DNA of 64,000 nucleotides from an uncultured Desulfosarcina sp. (GTDB lineage Bacteria; Desulfobacterota; Desulfobacteria; Desulfobacterales; Desulfosarcinaceae), in NCBI GenBank assembly GCA_963674945.2, contig CAXXWQ010000004.1, positions 32,001 through 96,000 of the forward strand. The letters run 5' to 3'. Shown one piece after another: positions 24,904 through 62,190 of this stretch (its first letter is position 1; each line of letters begins with the position of its first letter). The position numbers were made by a program, and so were the translations under genes. The notes under the pieces were generated by a model that made no database searches, was not told the origin of the DNA, and saw nothing but the letters and a program-made list of their open reading frames with translations.

Positions 24904-24905
24904 TC

Positions 24906-26048: not shown

Positions 26049-26078
26049 GACAGAATGCTTGAAAAAACTGAGAAAAAA

Positions 26079-26861: not shown

Positions 26862-26898
26862 TCGTTTTCTCGAAGAATGTTCTGAAATCAGTTGTATA

Positions 26899-28220: not shown

Positions 28221-28871
28221 ATGGAAGAGACAAAAAATAGTCTGCCATTGCTTGGAGACAAATTTCCTGATTTGAAGGTTCAAACAACCCATGGGCCGAT
28301 GAATATTCCCGGCGACCTAAAAGGCAAGTGGTTTGTGTTTTTCAGCCACCCCGCTGACTTTACGCCGGTTTGCACCACGGAATTTGTCGCCTTTCAAAAA
28401 CGGTACGAGCAGTTTGAAGCGCTCGGTTGCCAGTTGATTGGAATGTCCATCGATCAGGTATTTTCGCACATCAAATGGGTCCAATGGATTAAAGCGGAAC
28501 TGGACATAGAGATAAAATTTCCCATTGTCGCCGCTAACGATGCTGTGGCCATGAAGCTCGGAATGCTGCATCCCGGTAAAGGTACGAACACTGTACGGGC
28601 CGTATTCATCGGAGACCCGGCAGGGAAAATTCGTTTGATCATGTACTATCCACAGGAAATCGGACGCAACATGGATGAAATTGTCCGCGTGGTCAAAGCG
28701 CTTCAAATCGCGGACAAACAGGGCGCTGTGGCGGCAGGATGGCCGAATAACGAGCTCATCGGAGACCGGATCATTGTGCCTCCACCAACCAATGAGGCGG
28801 ATGCCGCAAAACGATCGGGTCAATACGAGTGCTATGACTGGTGGTTTTGCCACAAGCCGCTGGAAAAATAA
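28221..28871 (+). CDS. Peroxiredoxin (Prx6 subfamily)
   Basis: [25 protein letters not shown]-terminal CYDWWFC; AGGAGAGG RBS. Confidence 0.93.
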
Positions 28872-28873
28872 GG

Positions 28874-41342: not shown

Positions 41343-42242
41343 TTAATTTGCATAAAAATTCTTTACGCCATGTAGAACATGATAATTGATGGCTTGCCTG
41401 GGGCACCGGTCGACACATAGCCCGCAATTATCGCATAATGCCCAATTAAATTCTGATGGATTGCTTTTTAGTAAACTCGGATCAAGCCCCACGGGGCATA
41501 TTTTTGCACATTCTCTGCATTGAATGCATTTTTCGTTTTCAAGACCGATTCTTACGATGCGCCCCCTTCCAAGAAGGGAAAGACCTCCCCCGGAAGGACA
41601 GAAATACCTGCACCATCCGCGTCGAAGCGCAAATAGATCCAGTAACAATACGAGTGTTAATAATCCTGCACCCGCAATGCTGAGGCGATGATGACTAAAC
41701 AGGTTGATCAATTCACGTCCCAAGGCATGAGGAGGATCGAAGACAGAAATTAAAGCCATTTTCCCAAAAAAACCGACGGCCAGAAGCCCCCCTAAGGCGA
41801 TAAAACGAAAATCCTTTATTTCCAAGGCCTTTTTCCAGACAGCACCTCTCCACCGATCGGGTATCTTCATCAGCAGTTCGAGCAAAAATCCCATGGGACA
41901 AAGCCATGAACAGAACACGCGGCCAAACAAAATCGTAATTCCCAGAGGAAGCAATGCCGCTATGAAAAAAGGCATAATCACTCTTCTATATGACGACACG
42001 GATTCTATAAAGGCAATTGGATGACAAATAAAAAACCCATTGATGGATAAACACCATGTGTCGCCACTTATCGGGAAAATTGTTGGTGGCGGCAGATGTC
42101 CCATGACGATGGACGACGGTGACCAATCAGAAGGATTTTGAGAGAAAAAAGGAACAGCGATAATCGTCAGCAGCATCAGAAGCTGAGTCGTTCGCCTGAT
42201 ATGCGTTATTGTGAGGCCTTTCTTTTTCCTTCTATTTTTCAC
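41343..42242 (-). CDS. NapH/MauN-type membrane ferredoxin
   Basis: GRVFCSWLCPMG, RGWCRYFCPSG and two CxxCxxCxxxCP; GTG start at 42242 overlaps the upstream stop (GTGA). Confidence 0.85.
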   Translation of the reverse strand: MKNRRKKKGLTITHIRRTTQLLMLLTIIAVPFFSQNPSDWSPSSIVMGHLPPPTIFPISGDTWCLSINGFFICHPIAFIESVSSYRRVIMPFFIAALLPLGITILFGRVFCSWLCPMGFLLELLMKIPDRWRGAVWKKALEIKDFRFIALGGLLAVGFFGKMALISVFDPPHALGRELINLFSHHRLSIAGAGLLTLVLLLDLFALRRGWCRYFCPSGGGLSLLGRGRIVRIGLENEKCIQCRECAKICPVGLDPSLLKSNPSEFNWALCDNCGLCVDRCPRQAINYHVLHGVKNFYAN

Positions 42243-42979
42243 TTTTGTTGTTTTCTTTTTATGACGGCAACCGCTGGAAGTGTGGATGTAACAGATCGTT
42301 TGTCGAGGAGTTTTTTGACAAATCCGCCATATCGTTTCTCGTAATAGCCGGATCCGTCTTCTAATGCCGCCGTATCTTCTCTTACGGGACAGATGAAGGT
42401 ACAAACCCCGCATCCGATACAATAGGAAGCATCAATATATGGCGCAAGGTCCCCAATCCCTCCTTCCGGCGGATTTCTCAATAATGCCTTGTCTTTCATG
42501 GGGCAATTAAAGTAGCATTCACCGCAGAATCCAAACTGCCAAGCCACGCATATTTTGCTGTCCAGATCAGCTACCCCGATTTTCAGGTCGTCGGAAAGAT
42601 TTTCGAGTGTTTCTCTATCGTTTCTGATCAGCTTCAGTGCGCCGGTGGGACATGCTTCGCCGCAGCGAAGAAAACGCCCCAGTGTTTTGTTCTCACCATC
42701 TTTCGATACTTCCCGGCATAGGTAGCAGGGTGTCTGCAACGGATCAATAAAAGGCGTATGCACGAGAGCACCGTGTGTTATGTCCAACAAGCGAATGCTG
42801 TCAAAAGGACAAGCCTCGACACACTTGCCGCACCGTATGCATCTTTCCAAAAAGTCGTGGCTCGCTCCGGGAGGTCGTAACACTTCGCAAGCCCCTTTTT
42901 TCGGAATGAAAGCAGCAAACCCGATGATGCCGGTCTGAATCAAAAAGGTTCTCCTGCTTATCACGGGGCGCTTCATCAT
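42239..42979 (-). CDS. NapG/MauM-type Tat-exported polyferredoxin
   Basis: SRRTFL Tat motif, LRPPGA, CIRCGKCVEACP and further 4Fe-4S motifs. Confidence 0.85.
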   Translation of the reverse strand: MMKRPVISRRTFLIQTGIIGFAAFIPKKGACEVLRPPGASHDFLERCIRCGKCVEACPFDSIRLLDITHGALVHTPFIDPLQTPCYLCREVSKDGENKTLGRFLRCGEACPTGALKLIRNDRETLENLSDDLKIGVADLDSKICVAWQFGFCGECYFNCPMKDKALLRNPPEGGIGDLAPYIDASYCIGCGVCTFICPVREDTAALEDGSGYYEKRYGGFVKKLLDKRSVTSTLPAVAVIKRKQQK

Positions 42980-43028
42980 TTGTACTTCACTTACTTTCCG
43001 GGCGTTGCGAAACATCGTCATGGGGTAT

Positions 43029-43085: not shown

Positions 43086-45200
43086 TTAGAAAGTGTATTT
43101 TATCTGAGCCCCGATCGTCTGTTTGGGCATGGGATACCCGTACACTTCCTGGTAGTTTTCACCAAAGAGGTTGTTAACATAAACCAAAAGTTTGGCCTTG
43201 TCTGATAAAAACGTATATTGCATCCCGACATCGGTAATAAAATAGCTATCCATGTCGTACCCGCCTTCACTCTTTCGGACACCAACATAACGCATATCAC
43301 ATGTCGCCATGAGATCTTTCATCAAGTCGTACCGAACACCGAGATTTGCCTTGTGTTTCGGTGGGACATCCACCCAAAACGAATCCGGCAGATCGGTTTC
43401 ATCGACTTTGTTTTCAAGATAGGTGTAGTTGCCGAAGATATTGATTGTATCAAACCTTGCGTCAAACTCAAACTCCATGCCATAAAAACCAACGCTATCG
43501 ATATTATAGGCAAACGCATTTGGATTATAGGCACTCGGCCTGTCGAGGGCGACATAATCGGAGACGTCCGAGTAGTAGACCACAAATCGAACATCGATGT
43601 TTTCCCTGATACGATGATACACCCCAGTGTCATAATGCCAGCTTGACTCATATTCCAATTTTTGCTGCAGCGCACCCGTGCGCATGTAGTAAGCCTCATC
43701 TCAACATCCCGGAACATGATAGTCCCTGTTTACCGATATGAATACGCTTGTCGCGGGCTGTAACTGGTGTGTCATGGTCACCTTCGGCAACCAAAATGTG
43801 TCGGTATAATGGTGCCTGTATTTAGGCACATCGGGATCGAGGGTATAGGGATAGGTTCGCTGATCGATCACGGACATCCGCAACCCGGTTTTCAGCGTCC
43901 ACTTGGGTAAAAACGCCCACACATCTTCGAAATATCCCGAGTTTATTTCGAATATTTTCGGCATCTCCTCCGCCCCGGTTTTTTTGTAGGAATATCCGAC
44001 ATCCAATGAATTGTTTTCCCAAAGATCGGCGTTCAGCTCAATGCCGCCGCCGATATGCTTTTCGATATACCCATCTCCACCACTAAAACTTTGTTCCTTG
44101 TTGCCGTCGTCGTCTAAGGTAATGTACCAACTGTTCTCCTCTCCCTCGGTATTGTAAAAATGCAACTTTAATAGAAATTTTTTAATTTGCTGCTCATAGG
44201 CGACATCGTAATGGTCCGCACTCTTTTCCTTATAATTCTTTTGCCCCGGGTCTTCGGGATAGGAAATGGAAGCCATTTTCAAGGTGTCCGCGTCTTTGGT
44301 CACCGTCGGATAATCGGGATCGTAATCGTCACGCGATGGATCGTTTACAACCGGATTATCCCGGGTAAACTCGGATCCTTTGTAGGACAGTGTAAGAAGG
44401 CCCTCAAAAGGAAACCGATAGCTCAACCTGGCAGAATAATTGTCTGAATCCCATTCGTTGTTTCTGAGGTAGCCGTCCGACTCCTGATGTCCGTATGATA
44501 AAAAATAGGTCAGGTCGCCGACACCGCCGTTCATCGTCGCATTTCCGGAAAAGGCCTGGGGATTATCATACTCGGGGATGATGGTATAATCTCCTCGAAC
44601 CGTGATCTTTGGTTTTAAAGTATCTTGTTTCTCCCCTTTTTTCATGATGATGTTAATGACGCCGCCTGCTGAATTCTCATACTTGGCTGAGGCGCCGCCC
44701 CGTATTATTTCTATTTTCTCGATGTCCGACAGGTTCAAACTCGACCAATCGATGGGCGTCATCGCCTTTCCGGACGAGCCGGTCACCGGCCTACCGTCGA
44801 TGGCAACCGTATAACGACTGTCCTCGAAACCGCGAAACATAATCACCTGTTGTGGATCGGGAATCGTTGAGCTGCGCATGACATCGATTCCCGCCATGTT
44901 CATCAGAATGTCCTCAACGCGATCGACAGAGCCGCTTTTCACATATTTATCGACGTCAACGATTGTGCTTGTGGGCGTGAATTTGATGGCGCCGCCATGG
45001 AAGGCGTGCACAAAGACATCCCCTAATTCGACAGGTTCTTCATCTTCCACCAGATCTACCGGTTCCTCAACTTCCGGCGGGCATGTCGGGCAGTCAGCAT
45101 TACCACTATTCGAGGTCTGGGACAACGCGACATTCGGTAGTAGCAGCAGTTTCACACAGCATCCGACCAGAAACAACTTCAACGTCCTTTTCAAAAACAT
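43086..45200 (-). CDS. TonB-dependent receptor, putative selenoprotein (Cys-Sec), 704 aa with UGA read-through at 43701-43703
   Basis: ORFs 43701-45200 (signal, plug, IEKIEIIRGG) and 43086-43685 (barrel end VNNLF...IKYTF) are in one frame separated by one TGA: HVPGC-TGA-DEAYYMRTG. Confidence 0.85.
43665..43689 (-). promoter_or_regulatory. SECIS-like hairpin of the TonB-dependent receptor
   Basis: mRNA CUACA(U)GCGCA-CGGG-UGCGC-UGCAG; bulged U and G-rich loop beginning 22 nt after the UGA. Confidence 0.65.
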
Positions 45201-45240: not shown

Positions 45241-47421
45241 TCACACTTTTTCAATATTGCACAAAAATCCCCTGTAAGCGGGAAATGCGCTGATGGGATC
45301 CAATACCCCATCGTCTGTCAGTTCATTGGCACTGCTTTTATCCCAGCCGTGGGTCATCGCCACTTGGCCTTTGCCTAATCCTTTGATCAAGATCGCCTTT
45401 GCTGTTATGCTGCCCCTTGGAGAAATAATTCTCACCGCATCCCCATTTGAAATTCCTTTCGACGCAGCATCCTCCGGATTGATTTCGACCATCGGCTCAG
45501 GAGATTTTTTTAGAAGCGACGGGATATTATGATATTGAGAATGGTAAAAATATTTAATTCTACCACCGGTGTTCATTATGAAGGGATATGCTGACTGCAA
45601 TTCTTTGTTCCCGTAATTCTCATATGGATTCACGTAGACAGGCAGCGGGTCATACCCGAATTTTTTGAGTGTCGGGGATGAGAATTCTATTTTTTTCGAA
45701 GGCGTGTCAAGGCCTCTTTTTTCATATTTTCTGTATTGCGTAGTCTCGGATGGATGAACACCATTGAAGTTTTTCCTCAATTGGGCCGCAGTCAGATTCA
45801 CCGGTTTTAAATGCTCGTCGATCGCTTCATCGAGATTTTGCCATGGAAATTCTTTCGTGTATCCCATTGTTTTTGCCAATTCGAACCAGAATTTCCATGT
45901 GGGCCATGCTTTTCCCTGCTCCGGTATGACTTTGGGGGTCATAAAAATACTGTTTCGCGCCTTAAAGCCGTCACACTCCATAAATGTCGCCGCCGGCAAC
46001 ACGATATCGGCCATTTTTGCTGTCTCGGTCATAAAAAGATCCATGACGACCATGAGATCAAGCTTTTTAAAAGCTTCTCGCTGATGGGACACATTGGGCC
46101 CGGTCGAAAGGGGATTGCCGCCGACCACCAAAAGTGCTTTGATCGGATAAGGCTTGCCGGTCAAGATCGTCTCCGGCAATTTGTTTGCGCTTACCATATC
46201 ATGGTATTTCCACAAGAGTGGATAGCTCTCTTCCGTGATTCCGGGAACAGCCCTGTTTCTTATTTCTTTCAGATCCATGGGGGCAAGCTCGGTTTTTCGT
46301 TCCGACATCATGTTGCCCCCCTTAATATCGATATTGCCCGTAAGCGCCTGCAGAAGCTGTATGGAACGAATGGTCTGTACACCGTTTAGATGGAGTTCAA
46401 GGGCATTTCCCGTTGAAATACAGGCAGGACCGCTAGTGGCATATTCTACCGCAAATTTTTGAATATCGTCGGCCGGAATGCCTGTAATGGCCGCCGCTTT
46501 TTCGACCGGATACGCAGAAGCGAGTTTTTTGTATTCATCAAACCCGAGTCCATAGCTTTTCACGAACTTTTCGGCATACAGTTTCTTTTGGATAATGATA
46601 TTTGCCACGGCAAGGGCAAGTGCCCCGTCCGTTCCGGGTTTCGGACTGAGGTGACGATCCGCGACTCTGGTCATGGCGCCGGGTCGTGGATCGATGCATA
46701 CGAGTTTTGCACCCGATTCTTTCGCAGGAAGAACCCGGTTTAACCACGTCGGAATACTCGAGGTGGCAGGATTACAACCCCACTGGACGATATAGCGGGA
46801 ATTCTCATAATCCGACCATAGGGAGCCGATACTATACTTTTTGGCAACGGCACCTGCGACATGACACTGGCTGCCGCATCCCGTGAAATTGGGGGAGCCA
46901 TACACATCGCAAAAACGCCTTATAAAGTTCCTGTAGAAACCATCTCGCACCTGACTCACACCATAATGGAATACGACGGATTCAGGTCCCGGGGATGATT
47001 TGTATTCACCGAGCTTTTCTGCAATCTCTGCGAGAGCTTCATCCCAGCCGATCTCGACAAATTTGCCACCCTTTCTTTTCAGAGGACTCAATATCCTGTC
47101 CGGTGCATGGACAATCTCCGGGGTCGCAAGCCCCATATCACATAAAAATCCTTTGGATATCGGATCCTCTTCCCATGGCCCAACCGCCTTGATGATGTTA
47201 TCCTTAACATACGCCTTCATACCGCAGTCTTTGCCGCAAAGACCGCATCTTGTTATAATTTCTTTGGTTCCCGCCAATTGATTCTTGCTATTCTGACTCG
47301 CGGAAAGAACGCCTGCTCCACTAAACGCTACAGAAATGCCCGCAATTTCGAGAAACTTTAAAAATTCCCGCCGTGTGTATCCATTTGATGCCGTTTTCGG
47401 AACGATGATTTTCTTTTGCAA
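45241..47421 (-). CDS. Tat-exported Mo/W-bisPGD oxidoreductase (DMSO reductase superfamily), substrate unknown
   Basis: TRREFLK Tat motif, CGLCGKDC...C 4Fe-4S, candidate Cys ligand GSQCH, PGTDGALAL, TETAKMADIVLPA, VEINPEDA. Confidence 0.9.
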   Translation of the reverse strand: MQKKIIVPKTASNGYTRREFLKFLEIAGISVAFSGAGVLSASQNSKNQLAGTKEIITRCGLCGKDCGMKAYVKDNIIKAVGPWEEDPISKGFLCDMGLATPEIVHAPDRILSPLKRKGGKFVEIGWDEALAEIAEKLGEYKSSPGPESVVFHYGVSQVRDGFYRNFIRRFCDVYGSPNFTGCGSQCHVAGAVAKKYSIGSLWSDYENSRYIVQWGCNPATSSIPTWLNRVLPAKESGAKLVCIDPRPGAMTRVADRHLSPKPGTDGALALAVANIIIQKKLYAEKFVKSYGLGFDEYKKLASAYPVEKAAAITGIPADDIQKFAVEYATSGPACISTGNALELHLNGVQTIRSIQLLQALTGNIDIKGGNMMSERKTELAPMDLKEIRNRAVPGITEESYPLLWKYHDMVSANKLPETILTGKPYPIKALLVVGGNPLSTGPNVSHQREAFKKLDLMVVMDLFMTETAKMADIVLPAATFMECDGFKARNSIFMTPKVIPEQGKAWPTWKFWFELAKTMGYTKEFPWQNLDEAIDEHLKPVNLTAAQLRKNFNGVHPSETTQYRKYEKRGLDTPSKKIEFSSPTLKKFGYDPLPVYVNPYENYGNKELQSAYPFIMNTGGRIKYFYHSQYHNIPSLLKKSPEPMVEINPEDAASKGISNGDAVRIISPRGSITAKAILIKGLGKGQVAMTHGWDKSSANELTDDGVLDPISAFPAYRGFLCNIEKV

Positions 47422-47438: not shown

Positions 47439-47846
47439 TTATATGTTTTTCTCAGTGGCAAGGCAGAGTCTCCCGGCGCCGGCCGCCTTGGCCAGATCCA
47501 TTACGCGAACCACCTTGTTTAAAACGGTGCCACGATCGGCCTTGATGACGACAAGCCTGTCAGGGTCTGTGCCGATCTGCCCTTTGAGCTCTGTAAACAG
47601 TTTGTCCAGGGAGATTTCCGTATCGGCCAGATAGGCCCGTCCCTCGCGGTCCACGTATACGGTAATCTCCTGTTGGGTCTGGGGTGCGGCTGCCTTGGCT
47701 TGGGGAAGCTTGATCTTAATTCCCTCATCGACCATGAAATTGGTGGTCAATAAAAAGTAGATCAGCAGCATGAATACAATGTCGATCAGAGAAGTCAGGG
47801 GTGCCTGAATCTGATACCGGTCTTTTTTTTTTCTCTCGGTGAACAT
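47439..47846 (-). CDS. exbD: Biopolymer transport protein ExbD
   Basis: LTSLIDIVFMLLIYFLLTT, IKADR, VMDLAKAAG. Confidence 0.9.
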   Translation of the reverse strand: MFTERKKKDRYQIQAPLTSLIDIVFMLLIYFLLTTNFMVDEGIKIKLPQAKAAAPQTQQEITVYVDREGRAYLADTEISLDKLFTELKGQIGTDPDRLVVIKADRGTVLNKVVRVMDLAKAAGAGRLCLATEKNI

Positions 47847-47867: not shown

Positions 47868-48482
47868 TTATACGGGTTGATTCTTGTTGATGGCCTTCAT
47901 GAAAGACACGGCCCCACCTTGCAATCTGGCCTCATATTTATCCACTCTGGCAATCAGATAACTGTGCGCCACCATGGTGGGCAACGCAACCGCCAAACCA
48001 AACGCCGTCGTCAGCATGGCTTCCCATATACCGCCGGCGAGAACGGCTGCGTTCACCTTGCCGCCCATCTGCTGAATGACCATGAAGGCCTTGATCATTC
48101 CCACAACGGTTCCCAGAAGTCCCAGCAAAGGGGCAATATTTCCGATGGTGGCCAGTGTCTGGAGGTAGGACGACAGGTTCCTGACCTCTTCTTCCGTTGC
48201 GTGGACCAATACGGTTTCAATGGTTTCGCGGTCCTGGTCCCTCACATCGATTGCCTGGGCCAACACCCGGCCCATGGGTGAATTGCTTTCGGAAGCTAGC
48301 TGCAGCGCCTCTTTCTCTTTTCCCTCTTTAAGAAATGAAACAGTCTTTTTCGCCAGACCGGCGCCGCGACTTCGCATCCGGCTGAACCGAATCAACCGTT
48401 CCACAAAAATTGCCAGTGCAAAAACAGAACAAAGCAGTATGGGAACGACGAGAACGCCCCCTTTGGATAAAAATTCGAGCAT
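47868..48482 (-). CDS. exbB: Biopolymer transport protein ExbB (MotA/TolQ/ExbB)
   Basis: IAPLLGLLGTVVGMIKAF, LAGGIWEAMLTTAFGL. Confidence 0.9.
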   Translation of the reverse strand: MLEFLSKGGVLVVPILLCSVFALAIFVERLIRFSRMRSRGAGLAKKTVSFLKEGKEKEALQLASESNSPMGRVLAQAIDVRDQDRETIETVLVHATEEEVRNLSSYLQTLATIGNIAPLLGLLGTVVGMIKAFMVIQQMGGKVNAAVLAGGIWEAMLTTAFGLAVALPTMVAHSYLIARVDKYEARLQGGAVSFMKAINKNQPV

Positions 48483-48497
48483 TGTTTTTTCCTTACG

Positions 48498-50327
48498 TTA
48501 TGATTTACTCTGGTTCGGACGTTCAGATGTTTGTTGATTTTGCGGTTCTTCCACAATATCCGCGATACCATCGAAGTCCATATCCCTTGACCGCTTGATT
48601 AATGCCTCGGCATCATCATAATATTCCCACAGATCGGTTTTGCCGTCCGCGTTGGTATCCTCTTCCAGCTTATTCAACATGCCTTGGCGATAAAAATACC
48701 AGATGTCGGGCCGACCATCGCCGTTCTTGTCATGCTCGGCATGGGTGGCTTTTTCATTTGTGTCGTAATACCAAGTGATATTCAGTCGACCGGTGTCGCC
48801 TTCATCCGCCTGGCTTTTAATCAGTTTGCCGGCGTCGCTGTAATACTCTCTTTGATCGATCGCGCCGTTACTGTCCTCGTCTATCTCTTTGACGACAAGG
48901 GCTTTGTTCTTATAGAAGGATCGAAGCTCTGGGTTCTCATCCTGATCCGTGTCGATTTCCATCACCATGGACCACTCCGGCTTGTCGAACCACTGGGTCG
49001 TTTCGAAATGCGAATCAAAATCCGCATCTTTTATGATCCTTTGTTTCTTGCCCCCGACATAGTAGATTTTCAGATCGATGGCGCCGTCGTTGTTTTCATC
49101 TCTCTCCGATCGTACCAACAGGTCTTTTGCATAGTAATGAAAGGTATCGAAGGTTTCATTAAAATCCGTATCGCTTTCGGCCTTTTCGCGTTGTTCCTTG
49201 CCATTGAAATAGATGATGGTATCGATCTTTTTATCGCCGTTGTCATCTTTGGTCTGGCGGATCATCTTGTTTTTTTCAAACCAGGAAACTGTTTCAAGAT
49301 AGGTATCGTTGTTTTCATCAAAGGAGACTTTGACCGGCTCACCATTTTTAAAAATGCGGATTCGATCGATGCTGCCGTCAAACTTGGAGTCCTCTTTGAT
49401 CAGCGAAGGATTTTGATCGTTGTCAAATGTGACAAAATAATCCGGTTCATCATCGTAATTGGTATCTTTTTCCTGGGTAACGGGTTTGCCGTCTGCAAAT
49501 TTGGTAAACACATCGAACCGGCCGTCCAGGTTGGTGTCCTTCTCCTGTCGTTTTGGCAGCTCTTTTTCGAAAAAGGTCACGGTATCGAACCGGCCGTCCA
49601 GGTCCACATCTTTGCGCTGTTCTTTGATGGTACCGGCTTCATACAAACAGAAGGTTTCCATCTTTCCATCTTTGTCGTGATCGTGGTCGCTCTCTTTGGG
49701 CCTGGCCTGATCATCGAACCGTACAAATCTCTCCAGCCGTCCATCCCCGTCATCGTCTACCCTTCTTTCAACGGGCATATCGTTTTTATAGGTCGTCCAG
49801 ATGTTCACCTCGCCGTCGCCGTCCGTATCTTTGGTACTGGAGAGAACAACGCCTTCCTTGTAATTGAACACCGTGTCAAACCGCTGATCGGATGTGGTGT
49901 CCTTTTTGACAACCAGGGGCCTTTCCATGGCATCGAAAGTGATCATTTGGGTCATATGCCCCTGTGGATCGAACCGTTCATGGCGAATGCGCTTTTCCTT
50001 TTCAAAATAGTCTTTGGTATCGATGTGGCGATCATGATCCAGATCCCGCTCAACCCGCGTCAGCACTTCATTTTCATAATACTGAAAACTATCCATCACC
50101 TCATCGCCATTGCTGTCGATTTCCAGTTTCTCTACCATCCGCTTGCTGTTGAAATGAATGATCCGATCGATTTTCCCGTCCTCATCCATGTCTTTTTCGA
50201 TCCTGCTCGAATCTGCCGATAACGGACCGGGTAGCCACATCGAAAGGACCATGAGAAAGGCAATAACCACCAAAGAGATAATCTTTGGATGCGATTTTTT
50301 GTTTTCAATAGACTTCATTACATCCAC
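48498..50327 (-). CDS. Exported protein built of ~22 DxDxDG-like repeats
   Basis: Signal peptide, then ~22-23-aa units such as DMDEDGKID, DVDLDGRFD, DKNGDGRPD, each followed by a short beta-strand. Confidence 0.8.
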   Translation of the reverse strand: MDVMKSIENKKSHPKIISLVVIAFLMVLSMWLPGPLSADSSRIEKDMDEDGKIDRIIHFNSKRMVEKLEIDSNGDEVMDSFQYYENEVLTRVERDLDHDRHIDTKDYFEKEKRIRHERFDPQGHMTQMITFDAMERPLVVKKDTTSDQRFDTVFNYKEGVVLSSTKDTDGDGEVNIWTTYKNDMPVERRVDDDGDGRLERFVRFDDQARPKESDHDHDKDGKMETFCLYEAGTIKEQRKDVDLDGRFDTVTFFEKELPKRQEKDTNLDGRFDVFTKFADGKPVTQEKDTNYDDEPDYFVTFDNDQNPSLIKEDSKFDGSIDRIRIFKNGEPVKVSFDENNDTYLETVSWFEKNKMIRQTKDDNGDKKIDTIIYFNGKEQREKAESDTDFNETFDTFHYYAKDLLVRSERDENNDGAIDLKIYYVGGKKQRIIKDADFDSHFETTQWFDKPEWSMVMEIDTDQDENPELRSFYKNKALVVKEIDEDSNGAIDQREYYSDAGKLIKSQADEGDTGRLNITWYYDTNEKATHAEHDKNGDGRPDIWYFYRQGMLNKLEEDTNADGKTDLWEYYDDAEALIKRSRDMDFDGIADIVEEPQNQQTSERPNQSKS

Positions 50328-50344: not shown

Positions 50345-51046
50345 TCAGGTTGTCTCGAAAATAATATTCAATTCCATGGGGATATCTTTTTTAAAAAATC
50401 GGTGCGGAGGTCTTGGAAACGGGGCCGCTCCCTTTACCGCCTCGATGGCGGCCTGGTTGAGTATGGCATGGGGACACGATTGAACGACCTGAACGTTGCG
50501 CACCCCTCCCTGGCGGGTCACCACAAACCGCACGGTGATACGCCCCTCTTGTTGCATACTCTTGGCCGATTCCGGATATTTTTTGCTCGATTCGATTTTG
50601 AGTATCACCATCTCATAGTAGCTTTTTGCAGTGGTGAATGCAGCCGATGTGTCCAGGATTTCGCCGATCTGGTAATTACTCCGGCCGGCATTCAAATCGG
50701 ACGGCAGGTCCGGAACGGAAATCTGGGCCATTAGATTCTTGGAAACGGAGTTGTCAACCGGGTCGATTTTCATGGGCTGGATACGCGGAACACGCATGCG
50801 TTTCACACGGACCTGTTTGACATCTTCGGGTTGCTCGAGCTGTTTGGGACGCATCACCGGTCGCGGAATGGTCCTTGCAAAAGATTTTGAAAGATCTTGC
50901 ATGGAAAGCTCGATATAGCTGATGGCCTGGGATTGGTAGATACCCGCCACATGCAGCAATATGAAAATATGAAGTACAATGGATACCATAATCAGGTATC
51001 GCAGTAGCTTATTGGGACCTTGATTCGGGTGTTGTAATGCTTCCAT
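50345..51046 (-). CDS. tonB: Energy transducer TonB
   Basis: TM helix with SIVLH, C-terminal YPESAKSMQQEGRITVRF...LNQAAIEAV..AAPFP. Confidence 0.88.
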   Translation of the reverse strand: MEALQHPNQGPNKLLRYLIMVSIVLHIFILLHVAGIYQSQAISYIELSMQDLSKSFARTIPRPVMRPKQLEQPEDVKQVRVKRMRVPRIQPMKIDPVDNSVSKNLMAQISVPDLPSDLNAGRSNYQIGEILDTSAAFTTAKSYYEMVILKIESSKKYPESAKSMQQEGRITVRFVVTRQGGVRNVQVVQSCPHAILNQAAIEAVKGAAPFPRPPHRFFKKDIPMELNIIFETT

Positions 51047-51210: not shown

Positions 51211-52218
51211 CTATGTATTCCCTCTTCTATTTTCTTCCGGCGACTCGTGTACCGGCAAATAATTGTAATCAACAATCTTTTCGATGGGGACACTTTTAGG
51301 CAACTTACCGATATTGATCATGATTTCCTGCTGTTTGTAAATTTGCCGTTCCGGTTCCCTTCCATCTTCAAATTCTCGGAGCGCGGACTTCATCGCCACT
51401 TTCATCTCCACTCCGGTGTATTTGGGAATCCATCTTCTCGCACTCATTTCATTATGTTTGATATAGTCAAAAGCCTTGACCAGCCCACGAAGAAAAGCCC
51501 TGACTTTTTGCGGATGCTCTTTCAAGTACTTGTCCGTAAAGAACAGTCCGCTGAATATGTATCCTGGAATCGCATCGTTGAACGATACCAACAGTCGGCT
51601 CGCACCATGCATCTCCAGCATGGTCGCGGTTGGATCTCATGCCAGAATGACATCAACTCCCTTGGACTTTAAGGCCGCCTCATGTTTCATGGAGTCATCC
51701 AGCTTGATCCCTTTAATGGCCCGTATGTCGTCCTTTGTCAGCCCGGCCATTTTCAATGTCTCCGACAGAATCATGGCCGTTGTAATGGACCCGGATTCAG
51801 CCACCCGGCTCCCCCTTAAATCGTTTACCGAATGGATCTCGCTTTTTTGATCCACGTGCAGTCCGCACCGTGTACCGGTGTGGGCATGCCCCAGCCAGGC
51901 CACTATCTTTATGGGGATATTTCTAAGACCCGCATGAAAGACCCCGCCCAGATCGAGTTGGCCGGCATCGATATCCCCATGAAGGGCGGTGGCAATGATA
52001 TTGTGCTCACCCACCAGGCGGATCAGGTGTACATCCAACCCTTCCTGCTTCCAAAGGCCCTGCTCCAGGCCGACGTACAGTGGCAGATCGTCAATACTGC
52101 GGCTGTACGTGATGGTCATTTCCTCCAAGGCTGGTTCCGCGGCTGTGCCATGGTTCACCATAAAAAAGGAAAGAGCGGTTACGGTTGTCAATACGGTTAA
52201 CACGATCCGTCTGTTCAT
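51211..52218 (-). CDS. SsuA/THI5-like ABC substrate-binding protein, putative selenoprotein, 335 aa with UGA read-through at 51637-51639
   Basis: ORFs 51637-52218 and 51211-51621 are in one frame separated by one TGA: GVDVILA-TGA-DPTATMLE; the halves together give a normal-sized binding protein. Confidence 0.85.
51601..51628 (-). promoter_or_regulatory. SECIS-like hairpin of the ABC binding protein
   Basis: mRNA CGC(G)ACCAUGC-UGGAGAU-GCAUGGU-GCG; loop GG 20 nt after the UGA. Confidence 0.7.
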
Positions 52219-52376
52219 AATGTCTCTTTTTTAGTGTCCGTCCGGAAATCGGCAAATTTGGTCGAGATCAAGGCGCGTGAAAATTTTTCCGCAGGCATAT
52301 GGTTGATATTCCGAGGATAAAATTTTGAGCGCAACGCCGATATCGGGCAAATTGGCCATTTCTGGATGGACACTTT

Positions 52377-53174
52377 TTAGTTGCCTCCGGCCAGGGATGT
52401 CTCTGTATGCCATACGAGAATATGCCCCTGGATAAAGCGTGCCAGACGATCCAGTGAGAACCCCATGAGAGAAATCACGAGGATCCCGGCAAACATTCTG
52501 TCCGTCGCAAATGTCCGTTGGGCATCGATCACCAGGAAACCGATTCCGGAATCCGCCGCCAGCATTTCAACGCCGACGATGGCCAGCATGGACATGGCCG
52601 TTGAAATACGCATGCCGGTGATAATCATCGGAAGCGCCGAAGGAATGAGAACCTTTGTCCACATCTGCAAACCGTCGGCCCCCAGTGCCCGCGCCGCCTG
52701 AATCAAACGGACATCGACGCCTTTGATGCCGGCAATCGTATTGAGCACGATGGGGAAAAAGCATGCCTTGACAATGATGGCGATCTTCGAGCCGTTTCCG
52801 ATACCGAACCACACAAACATCACCGGAACGAGGGCAAAGGTTGAAATGGGACGAATCAGCTCAATCAACGGATCGAAAATATTTTCGAATAGTCTCGACC
52901 AGGCCACCAGAATACCGATACTCAGTCCCATCGCCGCAGCAATCAGATATCCGGCCACAGCCCGCAAAATGCTGACCCCGATATGGGGAAACACTTCTCC
53001 GGATATGGTCATGTCATAAAGCGCTGCCAGTATGGAACTGGGGGCCGGGAAAAAAAATGGATCGATCAGGCCGCTTTGACCGATCACTTCGCACACGATC
53101 AGAATGAAAAGTGGCGAAATCATTTTTTTCCAGCTGCCCTCCATTATTCCTGCGAATCCTGTATCTCTTCCCAA
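52377..53174 (-). CDS. ABC transporter permease (SsuC/TauC type)
   Basis: FPAPS, IRPIS, WFGIG, EAA loop QAARALGA, EMLAADSGIG; start may be a later ATG. Confidence 0.9.
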   Translation of the reverse strand: MGRDTGFAGIMEGSWKKMISPLFILIVCEVIGQSGLIDPFFFPAPSSILAALYDMTISGEVFPHIGVSILRAVAGYLIAAAMGLSIGILVAWSRLFENIFDPLIELIRPISTFALVPVMFVWFGIGNGSKIAIIVKACFFPIVLNTIAGIKGVDVRLIQAARALGADGLQMWTKVLIPSALPMIITGMRISTAMSMLAIVGVEMLAADSGIGFLVIDAQRTFATDRMFAGILVISLMGFSLDRLARFIQGHILVWHTETSLAGGN

Positions 53175-53914
53175 ATCATTCCCCGCAGAGCCTGTTCATA
53201 CATGACGAATTGCGGTGTCGTCAGGTCGGCTCTTGTTCGCGGCCTCGGGATATCGATGGTCAGTGTGGCCATGATCCGGCCCGGCCGCCTGCTCATCACG
53301 ACGACGCGATCGGAAAGATAAATCGCTTCACCGATACTGTGGGTGACAAACAACACCGTACATTTCGTCTCTTGCCATATCCGCAACAGCTCTTGCTGAA
53401 GCAATTCCCGCGTCAGGGCGTCCAGCGCCCCGAAGGGTTCATCCATGAGCATCACTTTGGGCTCATTGGCCAGGGCCCTGGCAATGGCGACCCGCTGTTT
53501 CATCCCACCGCTGAGTTCATGGGGATAACGGTTTTCAAACTTGTTCAATCCTACCAGATCGATATATTTTGCGCTGATGTCGCGCCGTTTTGTTTTCGCG
53601 ACCCCGCGTACTTCCGGGCCGAACTCCACATTGCCTCTCACCGTTTTCCAGGGGAACAAAAGGTACTCCTGAAAAACGATGGCCCTTTTGGGGTCGGGAC
53701 CGTTGACTGAATGACCGTCAATCATGATCCTGCCCCTCGTCGCCTTCTCAAGCCCGGCCACTAGGAGCAAGAAGGTTGATTTGCCGCATCCGCTGGGACC
53801 CAGTATGGAGACAAACTCCTTTTCCCGGACCTGCAGGTTGAACTCATCGATGGCCACAACCTGCCTGTTTTTACAATCAGAGAAAACCTTGCATACGCCT
53901 TGGGCCCGGACCAT
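53144..53914 (-). CDS. ABC transporter ATPase (SsuB/TauB type)
   Basis: GPSGCGKST, VFQEYLLFPW, LSGGMKQR, MDEPFGALDALTR. Confidence 0.93.
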   Translation of the reverse strand: MVRAQGVCKVFSDCKNRQVVAIDEFNLQVREKEFVSILGPSGCGKSTFLLLVAGLEKATRGRIMIDGHSVNGPDPKRAIVFQEYLLFPWKTVRGNVEFGPEVRGVAKTKRRDISAKYIDLVGLNKFENRYPHELSGGMKQRVAIARALANEPKVMLMDEPFGALDALTRELLQQELLRIWQETKCTVLFVTHSIGEAIYLSDRVVVMSRRPGRIMATLTIDIPRPRTRADLTTPQFVMYEQALRGMIWEEIQDSQE

Positions 53915-55075
53915 TTACCTTGTCGATCCGGCCATGATCTGTTCAATAAATCCCTCGATGCGGACTCTGAGCTGCCCCACATCCGAATGGGAGTAATCCG
54001 TCACCACATGTAGGTAAGGAAGGCCATGTTTTTCTTTCACTACTTCTCCCACACGGTAGGACTCGATATTGAACGCATGGCAGGACTGCCAGGTCAGGTC
54101 GATGACACCCTGGATGTTGTATTCGGTGATCAGTCGGTCGATCTGTTCGAATCGCGTGTCGTTGGGTGTCATACAGGCGCAGGTTACCTTTAAATAGCGC
54201 CGCGCGATGCCTTCAATGGGATCATCACCCGGATCGATCCGATCATCCAGCCGCGTGACCCCACCGCACCCTTCCTGACACACCACTACGCCACCGCTCT
54301 CTTCCACCAGGCGCAGCACCTTGTCACACCCCAGCGAGTTTCCAAGGCCGGTCCATAAGATTCGCGGCCTGTTTTCGCTGCAGGCGAACTGCTTTTTACG
54401 GATCCTGTCTTGAAGCGTTTCCAGCATTGATTCCAATTTTCTAAGGTATTGTTTGCGGTCTACGGTGTACGACATGCCTGTGGAAAGGGCCACCAGATCC
54501 AGACCCATAATGGGCACTGGATTGGACTTCCTGCATTGATGGATCCGTTTCAATAATGCTCTCTCCACGTTTCCCTGTTCGATGGCATCCATCAATGCAT
54601 CGTCCGTAATCCGGGTATCCAATTGGTCTTCAAGAAAGGATTTGAGCTTTCTCACCTCATCGATCCAGTAAACCAGTGCCCCCGCATTTTCCGGCTTTTG
54701 CGGCAGATCCATCACATGCATGGGTTTTTCACGGCCCAACAGCTCGTACATTTTCTTGCGGCCGTCGCATGTGGTCTCGCCAACGAGACAATCAGCAAGA
54801 GGAAAAATCGGGCAGGTATTGTTGATGGCCCGTCCATAGGTGGCTTTCACCATGGGGCACTGGTCGACCGGAAGTACTCGTTCCGCCGCATCGATGGGTC
54901 CTGGTGTCGTTCCGCAAAGCCCGACGGTGATGGCCCCGGCGGCCCATGCCACCTCTCGCGGAAAATAGGAGCACAGGCAACCCACCACTTTTCTCCCCTC
55001 GTCTTTCGCCATCTCCAGGTCCAGTGCGAAGGAGGTTTTTACTTCATCGATTTTTTTGGTGTTTCTCAAATCCAC
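53915..55075 (-). CDS. Double-cubane [8Fe-9S] cluster protein (DCCP)-like reductase
   Basis: Cys pattern of DCCP: VGCLC, GLCG, CPMVKATYG, CP, GETTCDGRKKMYE, EGCGG, CACMTPN, CHAFNIES, TDYS..DVGQL. Confidence 0.82.
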   Translation of the reverse strand: MDLRNTKKIDEVKTSFALDLEMAKDEGRKVVGCLCSYFPREVAWAAGAITVGLCGTTPGPIDAAERVLPVDQCPMVKATYGRAINNTCPIFPLADCLVGETTCDGRKKMYELLGREKPMHVMDLPQKPENAGALVYWIDEVRKLKSFLEDQLDTRITDDALMDAIEQGNVERALLKRIHQCRKSNPVPIMGLDLVALSTGMSYTVDRKQYLRKLESMLETLQDRIRKKQFACSENRPRILWTGLGNSLGCDKVLRLVEESGGVVVCQEGCGGVTRLDDRIDPGDDPIEGIARRYLKVTCACMTPNDTRFEQIDRLITEYNIQGVIDLTWQSCHAFNIESYRVGEVVKEKHGLPYLHVVTDYSHSDVGQLRVRIEGFIEQIMAGSTR

Positions 55076-55094: not shown

Positions 55095-55898
55095 CTAACG
55101 GCATTTCAGATACACTTGCTCTTTTGCAAAGACCGCAGCCCCCAAGGCCCCGGTGATCTGCGCATCCGCGTTAATGGGGATGAATCCGAACCCAAAGTAT
55201 TTTTCCAGGGCCAAGCGCAAACCCTGGTTTTTGGCACCCCCCCCTACAAAAGCAACATTTCTAAATGGATTTAAACGTTTGGCCATATTTCCAACTCGCC
55301 GGGCAATACTTTGGTGTAAGCCGGCGGCAATATCGTTTTTCGTGTTGCCCGCGGCCAGCAGGGAAATCACTTCCGATTCCGCAAACACGATGCACGTGCT
55401 GTTGATTTGGCAAGGCGTACCGGTTTCCATGGACATATGGCTGAAATGATCCATTGGTACTTCCAGTGAACGCGCCATCATTTCCAGAAACCGTCCGGTT
55501 CCGGCTGCACATCGGTCATTCATGACAAAATCGGCGACACTTCCATCCTTGTTCAATGTGATGGCCTTAGCGTCCTGACCGCCGATGTCGATCAGTGCTT
55601 CCACATCGGGATTCAGATAATGCACCCCCTTGGCATGGCATGAAATCTCCGTAAGGGCTTTATCCGCAAAAGGAAGAGAAATCCTACCATAACCTGTTGC
55701 CACGATACGTTTCACATCCTTTTGTTTGCGATTGGCATGATCCAGCACCTTTTGGAAAACAGTTTCACCGGCCTTTTGCGGTTCTGCACCAGTTCGCAAG
55801 ATTTGTGCGGCGACAATTCCCGCATCGTCGATGACAACCGATTTTGCCGTCAAAGAGCCGACATCAACCCCGGCATACAGTCCATTTTCTACCGTCAT
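55095..55898 (-). CDS. ASKHA ATPase activator (DCCP reductase-like)
   Basis: GVDVGS, ATGYGR, DIGGQD, MNDRCAAGTGRF, STCIVFAESE; adjacent to the DCCP-like gene. Confidence 0.9.
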   Translation of the reverse strand: MTVENGLYAGVDVGSLTAKSVVIDDAGIVAAQILRTGAEPQKAGETVFQKVLDHANRKQKDVKRIVATGYGRISLPFADKALTEISCHAKGVHYLNPDVEALIDIGGQDAKAITLNKDGSVADFVMNDRCAAGTGRFLEMMARSLEVPMDHFSHMSMETGTPCQINSTCIVFAESEVISLLAAGNTKNDIAAGLHQSIARRVGNMAKRLNPFRNVAFVGGGAKNQGLRLALEKYFGFGFIPINADAQITGALGAAVFAKEQVYLKCR

Positions 55899-59043: not shown

Positions 59044-60915
59044 TCATAAAATGCAGTCGTGAAACAGCTTATCCAAAGGCGTCGGGGTGATATGCTGTCC
59101 GATGACAATGATAAAATGTTCTTCTTCCCAATTTTCTCCCGCCGATTCGCTGAATTCGGAGATTTCGTAACGGCCGGACACATATTGGACCACCATGGGG
59201 GTGGCGTGGTCGGTGAAAGTGATGATACCTTTGATGCGAAAAATCGCAGGTGGCAGGCGTTCTTCAAGGGTTTGGATGAATCGGGAACGATTCAGCGGCC
59301 CGGTGAACACGATTTTGTGGCTCTGGATATTGTCGTGGGTGTGGTTGTGGTGGCCGTTTTGACCCCTTGGTATGATGTTCGGGGTATGTGGCGTATCCCT
59401 CGGATCGGGACTGTAGAGCAGGGACGGGTTGACCTCACCCCGGGTGGCGGCGATGATGGGGGCGCGCGGATTCCATTGGCGCAGGTGGGCCATGGCCGCT
59501 TCCTTTTGCCGGTCGGTCATGAGGTCCACCTTGTTGAGCATCAGGATATCGGCGGCTTTGATCTGGTCCACGGCAATGTGGGAGGCCTTGCAGGCATCCA
59601 GGTACATGGGACCGTCCACCATTGTGGTGACGGAATCCAGGCGCACAAGGTCGTCCAGGGTCTCCAGTTCTTCCACGAAATTCATGGGATTGGCCAAGCC
59701 GGTGGTCTCCAGGACCACGAAATCGGGCTGGAACCGGGTGCAAAGCTGGTGCAGTGCCGGTTTGAGGTGCCCGCTCAGGGTGCAGCAGACACACCCTTCA
59801 TCGATCTCGGTGACCACCAGGTTGTCGCTGCCCAGCAGTTTGCCGTCCAGGCCGGTCTGGCCGATCTCGTTCTGCACCACGGCAACGAAGCGGTCCCGCT
59901 GAATCTGATAGGCCACGAAGTTTTGCAGAAAAGAGGTTTTGCCCGAACCCAGAAAACCGGTAAGGACGATCATGGCGGGCCGGTCGTCGATGCCCAGCAA
60001 CTTCTTATCCAGACTCTTGAAATCGCCGATCTTGTGGGACTGCCACCACAGGGCCTTTTCCCATGTGTCGGGAATGGGCAGACCGGGCCGCCAACGGATG
60101 GCGTCCGCCTCGTTGACGCCGGCTGGCGAAGAAGTTGGATTCGGTATTTCACCGCCGAATACCAGGCGACAGAGATGTCGCTGCGTCTTCTCGTCCGGTT
60201 CTTGTAATTGTTTTCCATCGGACCAGTAGCGGGTGATATGACCCGGGCTTTGTCGGTGCGTAAAAGCGGACGGAGGCAGTTCGAGACTGAATCCCGCCGA
60301 AGCGCCGATCACTTCGTAAATGGCCCGGGCGATGGCAAAGGCCGGCAGGTGCTGATCCCATCCGCCGGGCGGCACAAGTGTGACCGGACCATCGGGGGTG
60401 TCCACCCGCACGCCGTCCGCTGCCCTGCTGGCCAGCCAGTTGTCGGCCAGCAGGGTAAGCGCAACGGTGCCATGGTCCAGATCGATGGTCAACTCCAGAT
60501 CCCCGATGTAAAAGAGCGAACACAGATCGGCGTGTCGGGAGAACTGCCGAAGGCACGAGAGATATTGATCCTGCTGGGTCCATGCCGCTGCCGGCAGTGA
60601 AAACTGTTCCACCGTCTCCTCGTCCGGCGAGGGAAAGTAGTTGAGTTGAAAGCGACCCGCAAGTTGTCGTCCCGACCGTCCGGCTCCCATCCAGACCCAG
60701 GCGAATACTCCTGGCCAGCCGGCGATCTTGACGGTCCATGCCTCGGTATCGGTGGCGCATTGGTTTACCCCCCGCCACCCCAGGTGATGACGCACCGCCG
60801 GTACGAAATTGGCGCGCACCACCATGGCGCGCAAAATGCCCGGCAGGGCCGTTTCCGGGGAAGCCTCGATGTCGCCGGGGTAGAGTTTGCGCAGCGATTG
60901 AAGACAAGATGCCAT
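59044..60915 (-). CDS. COG0523/CobW-family metallochaperone GTPase with long N-terminal extension
   Basis: LTGFLGSGKT, QNEIG, GCVCC, LETTGLANP, NKVD, His-rich linker, FRIKG CobW_C; start ATG 60915 behind AGGAG. Confidence 0.9.
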   Translation of the reverse strand: MASCLQSLRKLYPGDIEASPETALPGILRAMVVRANFVPAVRHHLGWRGVNQCATDTEAWTVKIAGWPGVFAWVWMGAGRSGRQLAGRFQLNYFPSPDEETVEQFSLPAAAWTQQDQYLSCLRQFSRHADLCSLFYIGDLELTIDLDHGTVALTLLADNWLASRAADGVRVDTPDGPVTLVPPGGWDQHLPAFAIARAIYEVIGASAGFSLELPPSAFTHRQSPGHITRYWSDGKQLQEPDEKTQRHLCRLVFGGEIPNPTSSPAGVNEADAIRWRPGLPIPDTWEKALWWQSHKIGDFKSLDKKLLGIDDRPAMIVLTGFLGSGKTSFLQNFVAYQIQRDRFVAVVQNEIGQTGLDGKLLGSDNLVVTEIDEGCVCCTLSGHLKPALHQLCTRFQPDFVVLETTGLANPMNFVEELETLDDLVRLDSVTTMVDGPMYLDACKASHIAVDQIKAADILMLNKVDLMTDRQKEAAMAHLRQWNPRAPIIAATRGEVNPSLLYSPDPRDTPHTPNIIPRGQNGHHNHTHDNIQSHKIVFTGPLNRSRFIQTLEERLPPAIFRIKGIITFTDHATPMVVQYVSGRYEISEFSESAGENWEEEHFIIVIGQHITPTPLDKLFHDCIL

Positions 60916-60993
60916 GCGTCGATGTTCTCTCCTTTTCATGGGGTGCGGCCGGGCCACAATTACGACCCGGCCGCTTGCTCGGGGTCCGGGGGG

Positions 60994-62160
60994 TCAGACG
61001 CCGAAGCTGATGGTATCGCCGTTGCCAAGATAGGCCGGATCCTTGGAGCGGTGGCGGGCCGTTCCCTTGATGACCGGATAGCCCGCGGCAATGAATTTCT
61101 TGGCGCACACAATGCCGGTGCAGTGGTTGCAGCCAATTTTCTCAAAGCCGTATTTTCCCAGGGAGATCACCAGGTCGTCATACTTGGGGTCCCAGTCGTC
61201 AAAGGGGGAGATGTGCAGCCCCCCGTAGATGCCGTGGAAGTTGTCGCCATCGTATTTGATCTCCCGGTAGGCGGTCTCGGCGAACTGGATGATGCTCTGG
61301 TGGCAGCATCCGGTCACGCTTACCAGTCCCTTGTCCTTGACGTTGAAGTAAAGGGATTGCTCGCCGTAGACACGGCAGATGATGGGAATGGCGAAAACGA
61401 ACCCGGCCATGCCCGGAACCACCTTGTTCAGGCCTGCTTTGACCACGTGCAACGGGCCCTTGTGGCCGGCGTCCTTGATGTACTGCAGTCCTTCCTCGTA
61501 AAACCCTTCGGGAATGTAGATGGGGATGGTCGGGTCGTACTTCAACGTAACCGGCAGTCCCCAGAAGTGATCGAAATGCTCGTGGGAGATAAACAGGGCC
61601 TTGATTTCCCGGTTTCGCAGCATCTGGTCGATGCCTTCGCGACGGAAGCACTCGTCCGTCCACTGGTAGGACCACCCGCTGTCCAGAAGGTATTTGGTTT
61701 TTTGGCCGTCCAGTGCCTCCACCTCCACTAATGCCGCATACCCGCCGGCATTTTCCGGATGCACCGAGAGCTTTTCCGTGATCGCCCACGCCTCGTCAAT
61801 GCGGTCGGGCAGCAGGTGCTTGATTTTGGCGATGCCATTGGCATAGGACCCTTTTCCCAAACCGGTACCATCGCCGAAGGGCGGCCAGTTATAGTCGTAC
61901 TGGTTTACCAGCAGGCCGCCGGCACCCTTGATGTCGCTCATCAGGTCGGCATTTTTGAACCAGCTGGTTTCGGTAATATTGGTAATTTTGACGCTCTTGC
62001 AGGCACCGATATCGGTCAGCTTGCGCTTTACTTCGGCAAATTGGCGTTTTCGCCAGGGCGAGTAGGAATAAATGCCCATGGATGCCAGCATTCCACCCAT
62101 GACGCCCACGGCCGCCCCCTTGAAAAAATCGCGCCGGCTGATATTTGATTTTTCCGACAT
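60994..62160 (-). CDS. Tat-exported metallo-beta-lactamase-fold protein (COG1237-like)
   Basis: SRRDFFK Tat motif, SHEHFDH (HxHxDH), TGCCH, GGLH, HCTG. Confidence 0.85.
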   Translation of the reverse strand: MSEKSNISRRDFFKGAAVGVMGGMLASMGIYSYSPWRKRQFAEVKRKLTDIGACKSVKITNITETSWFKNADLMSDIKGAGGLLVNQYDYNWPPFGDGTGLGKGSYANGIAKIKHLLPDRIDEAWAITEKLSVHPENAGGYAALVEVEALDGQKTKYLLDSGWSYQWTDECFRREGIDQMLRNREIKALFISHEHFDHFWGLPVTLKYDPTIPIYIPEGFYEEGLQYIKDAGHKGPLHVVKAGLNKVVPGMAGFVFAIPIICRVYGEQSLYFNVKDKGLVSVTGCCHQSIIQFAETAYREIKYDGDNFHGIYGGLHISPFDDWDPKYDDLVISLGKYGFEKIGCNHCTGIVCAKKFIAAGYPVIKGTARHRSKDPAYLGNGDTISFGV

Positions 62161-62190
62161 GATCGACTCCTTTTCTAAATGGCTTGTGCG

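Follow-up and report, generated by a model that had tools for sequence, protein, structure and literature searches.

A gene in the window, the whole 64,000-nucleotide stretch analysed here from an uncultured Desulfosarcina sp., very likely makes a full-length periplasmic selenoprotein with selenocysteine (Sec) at residue 194, because an in-frame UGA and a downstream hairpin are both conserved across its family. The protein is the binding subunit of a conserved cassette that also encodes a permease, an ATPase and a double-cubane cluster reductase (DCCP), usually beside a TonB receptor with a CU motif. The best explanation overall, to which we assign a probability of about one half, is that the Sec194 protein captures a selenium- or sulfur-bearing compound that is imported for the adjoining double-cubane reductase. 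The features of the gene are as follows.

51211..52218, minus strand: binding-protein gene, ABC substrate-binding protein of the SsuA/TauA/NMT1 fold, 335 aa with Sec194
51637..51639, minus strand: in-frame UGA, codon 194 of 335 (U-D-P), TGA in all family loci
51601..51628, minus strand: SECIS-like hairpin, 7-bp core, loop UGGAGAU, three more pairs beyond a bulged G
51865..51882, minus strand: H113-x-G-T-x-C118 motif, Cys118 aligning with TauA Glu106

The frame that runs from 52218 to 51211 on the minus strand reads GVDVILA-TGA-DPTATMLEMHG. It holds a single TGA, at 51639-51637, followed by 141 sense codons and a TAG, and the length of 335 residues presupposes read-through of that TGA. The preliminary description had pointed to this in-frame UGA (U-D-P) and to a Cys in AHTGTRCG; both readings were confirmed, and the Cys is Cys118. 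The N-terminus likely forms a signal peptide of about residues 1-27, to judge from its sequence. Profile searches matched the protein to NMT1/THI5 (PF09084, E 1.5e-21) and to SsuA-type models. Four sequencing runs from one study show the UGA without an alternative letter, although their contigs may be the source sample and not an independent one.

The UGA is conserved throughout the family. In tblastn searches the codon was TGA in 43 of the 43 family rows that cover the column, at 41-100% identity, and down to 41% identity it was never TAA or TAG. Two of these rows come from the window's own genome, one of them a partial copy, and two additional family rows that stop short of the column lie outside the 43. 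Removal of the partial copy and of duplicates leaves 32 non-redundant loci, which are related to one another, so that the counts are not independent events. All six further loci from a class-wide search, some of which may duplicate earlier loci, also have TGA. One locus (L055) has one extra stop besides the UGA. A protein search gave 61 matches. Fifty-six end exactly before the UGA column (these are protein records, and the stop codons themselves lie outside the data), one is the window's own 193-aa fragment, and four are full-length. At the protein level the four full-length homologs (P0004-P0007; 326 aa, about 51% identity) carry T-C-D-P, with Cys at the column, as do the members of their clusters. 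Neither the genome samples searched nor a metagenome scan yielded DNA encoding the Cys homologs. The family is patchily distributed, being present in 13/401 genomes of the order and 5/401 of the phylum with the window's own included, and its named records are Desulfobacterales and deltaproteobacterial MAGs. A quick tree was built from 27 Sec loci plus the window, four Cys proteins, SaoX and 17 outgroups, with four partial or broken loci left out. The family formed one group with a support of 95, and SaoX sat on a long branch. Since the Cys proteins form a single clade nested within the TGA loci, this tree suggests that Sec is ancestral in the family and that one reversion to Cys occurred.

The preliminary description had equated the column with the W-E-P position of SsuA/THI5-type proteins and had kept a TGG>TGA nonsense mutation as the alternative. 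The first part holds, as the column matches Trp176 of TauA. The second is not a live alternative, because Trp is present in only 5 of 135 distant full-length representatives (Cys in none) and never in the family. The proposed alignment of homologs gave TGA or Cys throughout, with Trp or TGG in 0/43 family rows, 0/6 further loci and none of the full-length homologs. TGG does occur in 11 of 13 distant loci at 21-29% identity, mostly relatives of Xanthobacter. The pattern named beforehand as contrary to recoding, TGG in all the closest homologs and no conserved hairpin, is the reverse of what was found: TGG is absent and the hairpin is conserved. More broadly, the UGA could have arisen by nonsense mutation, from TGG or TGC, or could be a genuine stop that splits the gene into proteins of 193 aa and 136 aa. 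Such a reading can draw on an ATG downstream of the UGA (Met200), where gene callers give a second ORF, and on the Trp of distant SsuA/TauA proteins. It is nearly excluded by the retention of the same TGA across the 43 rows and by the nesting of full-length Cys homologs inside the TGA clade. The downstream half is also as conserved as the upstream half, the mean amino-acid identity being 0.58 before and 0.57 after the UGA (28 full-length loci). In the predicted model a stop at this point would cut through the second lobe, the C-terminal half would have no signal peptide, and no Shine-Dalgarno-like stretch is evident 5' of Met200.

Recoding at codon 194 is further supported by the hairpin. Its core stem, ACCAUGC/GCAUGGU, pairs 51624-51618 with 51610-51604, and CGC/GCG past one bulged G lengthens the stem to 10 bp (-14.4 kcal/mol), so that the perfect 7-bp stem, its extension to 10 bp and the loop GG described earlier were all recovered. 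The loop begins 19 nt after the UGA, with GG at +21/+22. The earlier figure of 20 nt was thus right within 1-2 nt; in the receptor gene, whose spacing had been described as close, the loop starts after 22 nt. As a single structure the hairpin exceeds chance only modestly (z -1.5 and -1.9 relative to shuffled sequences), and a perfect stem of >=7 bp follows 46 of 4249 TGA ORF ends in the genome, about 1%, and 124 of 17670 internal codons. The case beyond chance therefore comes from the homologs. The consensus bSECIS rules, as given in the available part of a review (PMC13188914), ask for a loop of 3-9 nt with G in the first two places, 16-37 nt from the UGA, and an MFE <= -7.5; 31 of the 32 loci agree with them. 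Synonymous identity, calculated over 252 informative codons in the 32 loci, is highest at codons 198-206, where it reaches 0.74; the gene mean is 0.41 and the best of 233 other codon windows gives 0.58. His204 is CAT in 32/32 loci (other His 0.49-0.73), Leu201 is CTG in 31/32 (0.94; other Leu 0.16-0.39), and codon 203 ends in G in every one of the 32 loci, though its residue varies. The constrained bases are those that pair in the stem or make the loop GG, a pattern of sequence conservation that indicates that the hairpin is under selection as RNA. Covariation, which had been suggested as a check, gave no signal above shuffles in the 32 loci (0.055 vs 0.069 shuffled, one double change), and the pairs are nearly invariant. 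Pairing is preserved in 97.6% of cells and 5 of 9 pairs do not vary at all; the outer A-U pair is broken in 6/32 loci. A search of Rfam found no family in window positions 28000-64000.

The Sec machinery of the genome comprises selA, two selB, selD and two tRNA-Sec genes, and the selD itself contains an in-frame TGA. The selA gene is present in 22/22 other carrier genomes. This co-occurrence does not discriminate, because 98/101 genomes of the order pass the cut-off, and the presence of selA is necessary rather than telling. As the first step of the proposed mechanism, SelB would almost certainly read the hairpin and insert Sec at position 194. The preference for recoding expressed in the preliminary description is supported by the family-wide TGA, the Cys of the full-length homologs and the constrained hairpin. 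For genome-wide reassignment of UGA (to Trp or Gly) or non-specific read-through we found no supporting point, and the probability of either is negligible. TGA is the ordinary stop of the TonB, molybdopterin enzyme and NapG genes in the same operon, which contradicts reassignment; the sole tRNAs with a TCA anticodon are called tRNA-Sec; and the UGA column alternates with Cys. Other TGA-plus-hairpin read-through candidates in the genome include the contexts HCART-U-H, which we take to be formate-dehydrogenase-like, and NNF-U-ISIT, presumably multiheme-like. The second selB and a tRNA-Sec lie at G000:C3:567981-585446 within a cluster of yedE, tusA-like and Se/S-carrier genes. About 11 kb from this cluster is a distant TonB receptor paralog (24.7%) with no internal stop in the stretch translated.

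The structure of the protein was predicted with AlphaFold from a 34-row alignment, with Cys in place of Sec. The model (mean pLDDT 90.7) has the two-lobed SsuA/TauA/THI5 fold, with structural matches at Foldseek E values of ~1e-17 to 1e-19 and VIA Z scores of 24-28. The matches to SsuA (2x26; Z 28.0, rmsd 5.7, 285 aligned) and TauA (Z 24.7, rmsd 3.3, 278 aligned) are those of a class II periplasmic binding fold. Only two Cys/Sec columns, 118 and 194, are conserved among the 34 aligned proteins. His113, Cys118, Asp43, Met177 and Glu180 are invariant (34/34), and the residue 194 column is likewise conserved. A profile alignment, at low identity, places Cys118 on TauA Glu106 and residue 194 on TauA Trp176. 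According to the available part of the TauA study, Glu106 is essential and forms a bond to the taurine amine, and the MES ring makes contact with Glu106 as well as Trp176 (PMC6906117). Because they align with TauA residues that contact the ligand, Cys118 and residue 194 likely face one ligand pocket. The likeness to TauA, SsuA and THI5 (NMT1) lies in the fold and in the TauC/SsuC-type permease and ATPase. Identity is only 16-20%, the score is below the TIGR01728 cut-off (96 vs 163.5 bits), and TauA Gln30 and Gly79 are not kept, in addition to the replacement of Glu106 and Trp176 by Cys and Sec. In the second step of the mechanism, Sec194, Cys118 and His113, together with the acidic D43/D44, would probably substitute for the residues that bind sulfonate, with the ligand held by soft selenol/thiol contacts or by a transient Se-S/Se-Se bond.

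DszB and THI5 use cleft residues catalytically. Both turned up as structural matches, and a Cys/Sec pair commonly signals redox function, as would be expected if the protein were a periplasmic enzyme or redox partner like these two, with Cys118 and Sec194 catalytic before transport. The structural matches, however, are tied at the fold level, and the protein is the sole binding protein beside the permease (23/24 loci) and the ATPase (22/24), so a carrier role is needed. An enzymatic function is thus improbable.

The capture of a ligand for import is consistent with the genes around the binding protein. From the activase (55898) through NapH (41343) all genes lie on one strand.

55095..55898, minus strand: ATP-dependent activase/reductase of DCCP, TIGR00241, over cut-off
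53915..55075, minus strand: double-cubane cluster reductase DCCP, NF040772, 465 vs 350 bits, over cut-off
53144..53914, minus strand: ABC ATPase, SaoA model 268 vs 360 bits
52377..53144, minus strand: ABC permease of TauC/SsuC type, SaoP model 169 vs 295 bits, Gly at the SaoP Cys/Sec column
50345..51046, minus strand: TonB
48498..50327, minus strand: 609-aa acidic repeat protein, DUF6802/VCBS-like lead
47868-48482, minus strand: ExbB
47439-47846, minus strand: ExbD
45241..47421, minus strand: molybdopterin oxidoreductase, accessory, with close homologs in few related loci
43086..45200, minus strand: TonB-dependent receptor of CU-motif type, NF049946, 972 vs 700 bits, C499-U500
41343..43021, minus strand: NapG-like and NapH-like ferredoxin proteins, accessory

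Among 24 non-redundant long loci (31 long loci minus 7 duplicates), the permease is present in 23, the ATPase in 22, DCCP in 20, the receptor in 16, the activase in 15 and TonB in 9. Three of the four loci that lack DCCP are cut by contig ends, and 8/24 are without a receptor in the stretch examined. The strict published seven-Cys spacing is unmatched in the DCCP, in which Cys 35, 54, 73, 103, 266, 299 and 332 form a near match. No close permease homolog contains an internal stop. The receptor UGA, at 43703-43701, is TGA in 21/22 rows (CU) and TGC in one, and is followed by a weaker 5-bp hairpin at 43683-43670. The upstream rhodanese and MoeA-like genes are not counted as cassette parts, because neither is matched in the 31 long loci. 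Selenium genes occur in the stretch examined in 8/24 loci, as yedE (4), selD with yedF (3) or yedF (1). The other 16/24 have none there, and the window has none nearby; selD, yedE and yedF of this genome are located elsewhere than the cassette. A promoter and terminator scan gave results at chance level.

Several other observations concern the same region. The 609-aa protein with D-x-D-x-D-G repeats accompanies the receptor and TonB/ExbBD in 9/24 loci, and its DUF6802/VCBS lead scores 0.96, though recognition is low. Between the permease and binding-protein genes, at 52233-52374, is a repeat of ~142 nt with 86 blastn rows in the genome and a very high contig depth in the sequencing runs, which resembles a MITE or REP-like element lodged within the operon. 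An orphan copy of the final 155 nt of the binding-protein gene (51213-51367), 84.5% identical, is found at G000:C3:1963810-1963964, with no other cassette gene within ~4 kb. Genome G396 contains a similar partial copy (L026). Elsewhere in the window, an MtaA/CmuA-like methyltransferase fused to a corrinoid-binding domain (28841-30472) lies beside a peroxiredoxin and a sulfurtransferase. None of the related loci showed this fusion; the accessible part of PMC10418091 connects related proteins with the metabolism of methyl selenide. A separate alpha/beta pair resembling 2-hydroxyacyl-CoA dehydratase or benzoyl-CoA reductase, with two activases, is found at 23683-27741, and an IS1380-family transposase at 35193-36563. 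The interval 59044-63603 encodes a 470-aa membrane protein without a Pfam or NCBIfam match and a CobW fusion. A recent duplication has placed near-identical second copies of the membrane protein and of residues 1-340 of the fusion at G000:C4:1006337-1010001.

The Sec site itself is already known from SaoX. The statement in the preliminary description that Sec-containing ABC binding proteins had been reported proved right, as SaoX rarely has Sec in the same column. The portion of the preprint available reports Sec for two binding proteins, SaoB and, in rare cases, SaoX; of 52 SaoX genomes a single one had it, in two proteins (Haft and Gwadz, bioRxiv 10.1101/2022.07.06.499078). A published Sec-SaoX has T-U-D-P (PMC12013277, a row of the supplement). 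A true SaoX from this phylum aligns its T-C-D-P with A-U-D-P of the binding protein (hhalign 97%, 23% identity). The likeness to SaoX (NF040735) comprises the fold class, the Cys/Sec column (SaoX position 192, UxP) followed by D-P, a SaoX His that aligns with His113, and the occurrence of both with DCCP genes. The differences are larger. The score on NF040735 is 53.7 vs 300 bits, and the best E among the 34 members is 5.9e-21. SaoX C50 corresponds to Ser41 and the SaoX CC (224-225) to Ser223-Gly224, with no conserved Cys at these positions in the 34 aligned rows, whereas Cys118 is specific to the present family. Sec is the rule in this family and rare in SaoX. SaoX is also nearly always a lipoprotein, and is an extra binding protein in a nine-gene operon. 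Assignment of the protein to SaoX was therefore rejected on its score, on the missing SaoX cysteines and on the lack of a SaoP-type gate. It passes no NCBIfam cut-off, and no closer model was found for any of the 34 aligned members.

The available text of a 2026 review (PMC13188914) mentions ABC transporter selenoproteins five times, all of them SaoX, SaoB or SaoP. BtuF is listed there as well, and the present family has no entry. The accessible parts of PMC13326102 and PMC10418091 contain nothing on the binding protein. Sec-containing TonB receptors were reported by deep-Sep, according to the part of PMC12013277 available. The neighbouring receptor at 43086-45200 is a member of the CU motif type (NF049946). 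That model covers the receptor only, and its periplasmic partner and the cassette are not described in the literature examined, in so far as those sources were accessible. No description of the binding-protein family was found in the literature searched, although work from 2025-2026 could contain one. The binding protein thus apparently represents an unmodelled subfamily in which Sec is almost always present.

The whole importer resembles that of SAO (SaoTECXLBPAD) in pairing Sec-bearing uptake proteins with DCCP, and it is not an SAO member. Both are ABC importers with Sec in a binding protein and an adjoining DCCP and activase, in anaerobes with Sec machinery. Here, however, Gly occupies the permease column that forms the Cys/Sec gate in SaoP, DCCP lies inside the operon, and the cassette usually comes with an outer-membrane CU receptor and TonB/ExbBD. 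SaoL, SaoT, SaoE, SaoC and SaoD are absent from the annotated operon genes of the window.

In the third step of the mechanism, the ligand would probably pass from the CU receptor with TonB/ExbBD to the binding protein and then to the permease and ATPase, and would serve ATP-driven low-potential reduction by DCCP and its activase. The fourth step is less certain: with about even odds, the ligand would be a Se/S species (for example an organic selenide, a diselenide or thiol-bound selenium) whose reductive cleavage would feed selenide to SelD. Selenium-handling genes are the ones that recur among the neighbours, and 955/970 high-scoring DCCPs are in SelD genomes in the part of the preprint available (Haft and Gwadz, bioRxiv 10.1101/2022.07.06.499078). 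The selenium link may, on the other hand, belong to DCCP rather than to the transporter. Selenium shortage would also hamper the synthesis of a Sec-dependent importer, an awkward property in a scavenger.

The main rival accepts the Sec protein and has the cassette import a soft metal or organometal(loid), in line with the proposal for SAO; Sec, Cys and His would bind the metal directly, and DCCP would reduce the adduct. The invariant His113, Cys118, Met177 and U194 would suit a metal site, the same column holds the proposed metal-site Cys/Sec of SaoX, CU motifs are taken as metal-binding in SAO and the receptor has a CU dipeptide, and SAO loci also adjoin DCCP. Against this, no SaoB match was found in the genome (in a search run without a positive control), no MerB-like lyase or efflux pump recurs among the neighbours, SaoX C50 and CC are missing, the permease gate is Gly, and the neighbours that do recur are selenium-handling genes. 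A metal cargo is therefore rather unlikely, and a catalytic role is less likely than a metal cargo.

These findings bear on annotation and on biochemistry. In databases at least 56 members of the family carry annotations as truncated halves; current annotation therefore misses the family, which calls for a dedicated model. Transport proteins seldom contain Sec, and here two consecutive uptake steps, the outer-membrane receptor and the periplasmic binding protein, carry it. Since the cassette is tied to DCCP, the ligand of the soluble binding protein offers a direct way to the question of the natural substrate of DCCP (Haft and Gwadz). A more specific and speculative possibility, which we consider doubtful, is a dedicated relay in sulfate-reducer-type bacteria, in which the Sec-armed receptor passes an organoselenium or Se-S compound to the Sec-armed binding protein by selenol/thiol exchange, and DCCP cleaves it after ABC import to selenide for SelD. 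If such a relay exists, double-cubane enzymes would gain their missing physiological substrate, and the cassette would represent a transport chain that moves its ligand by covalent selenium chemistry.
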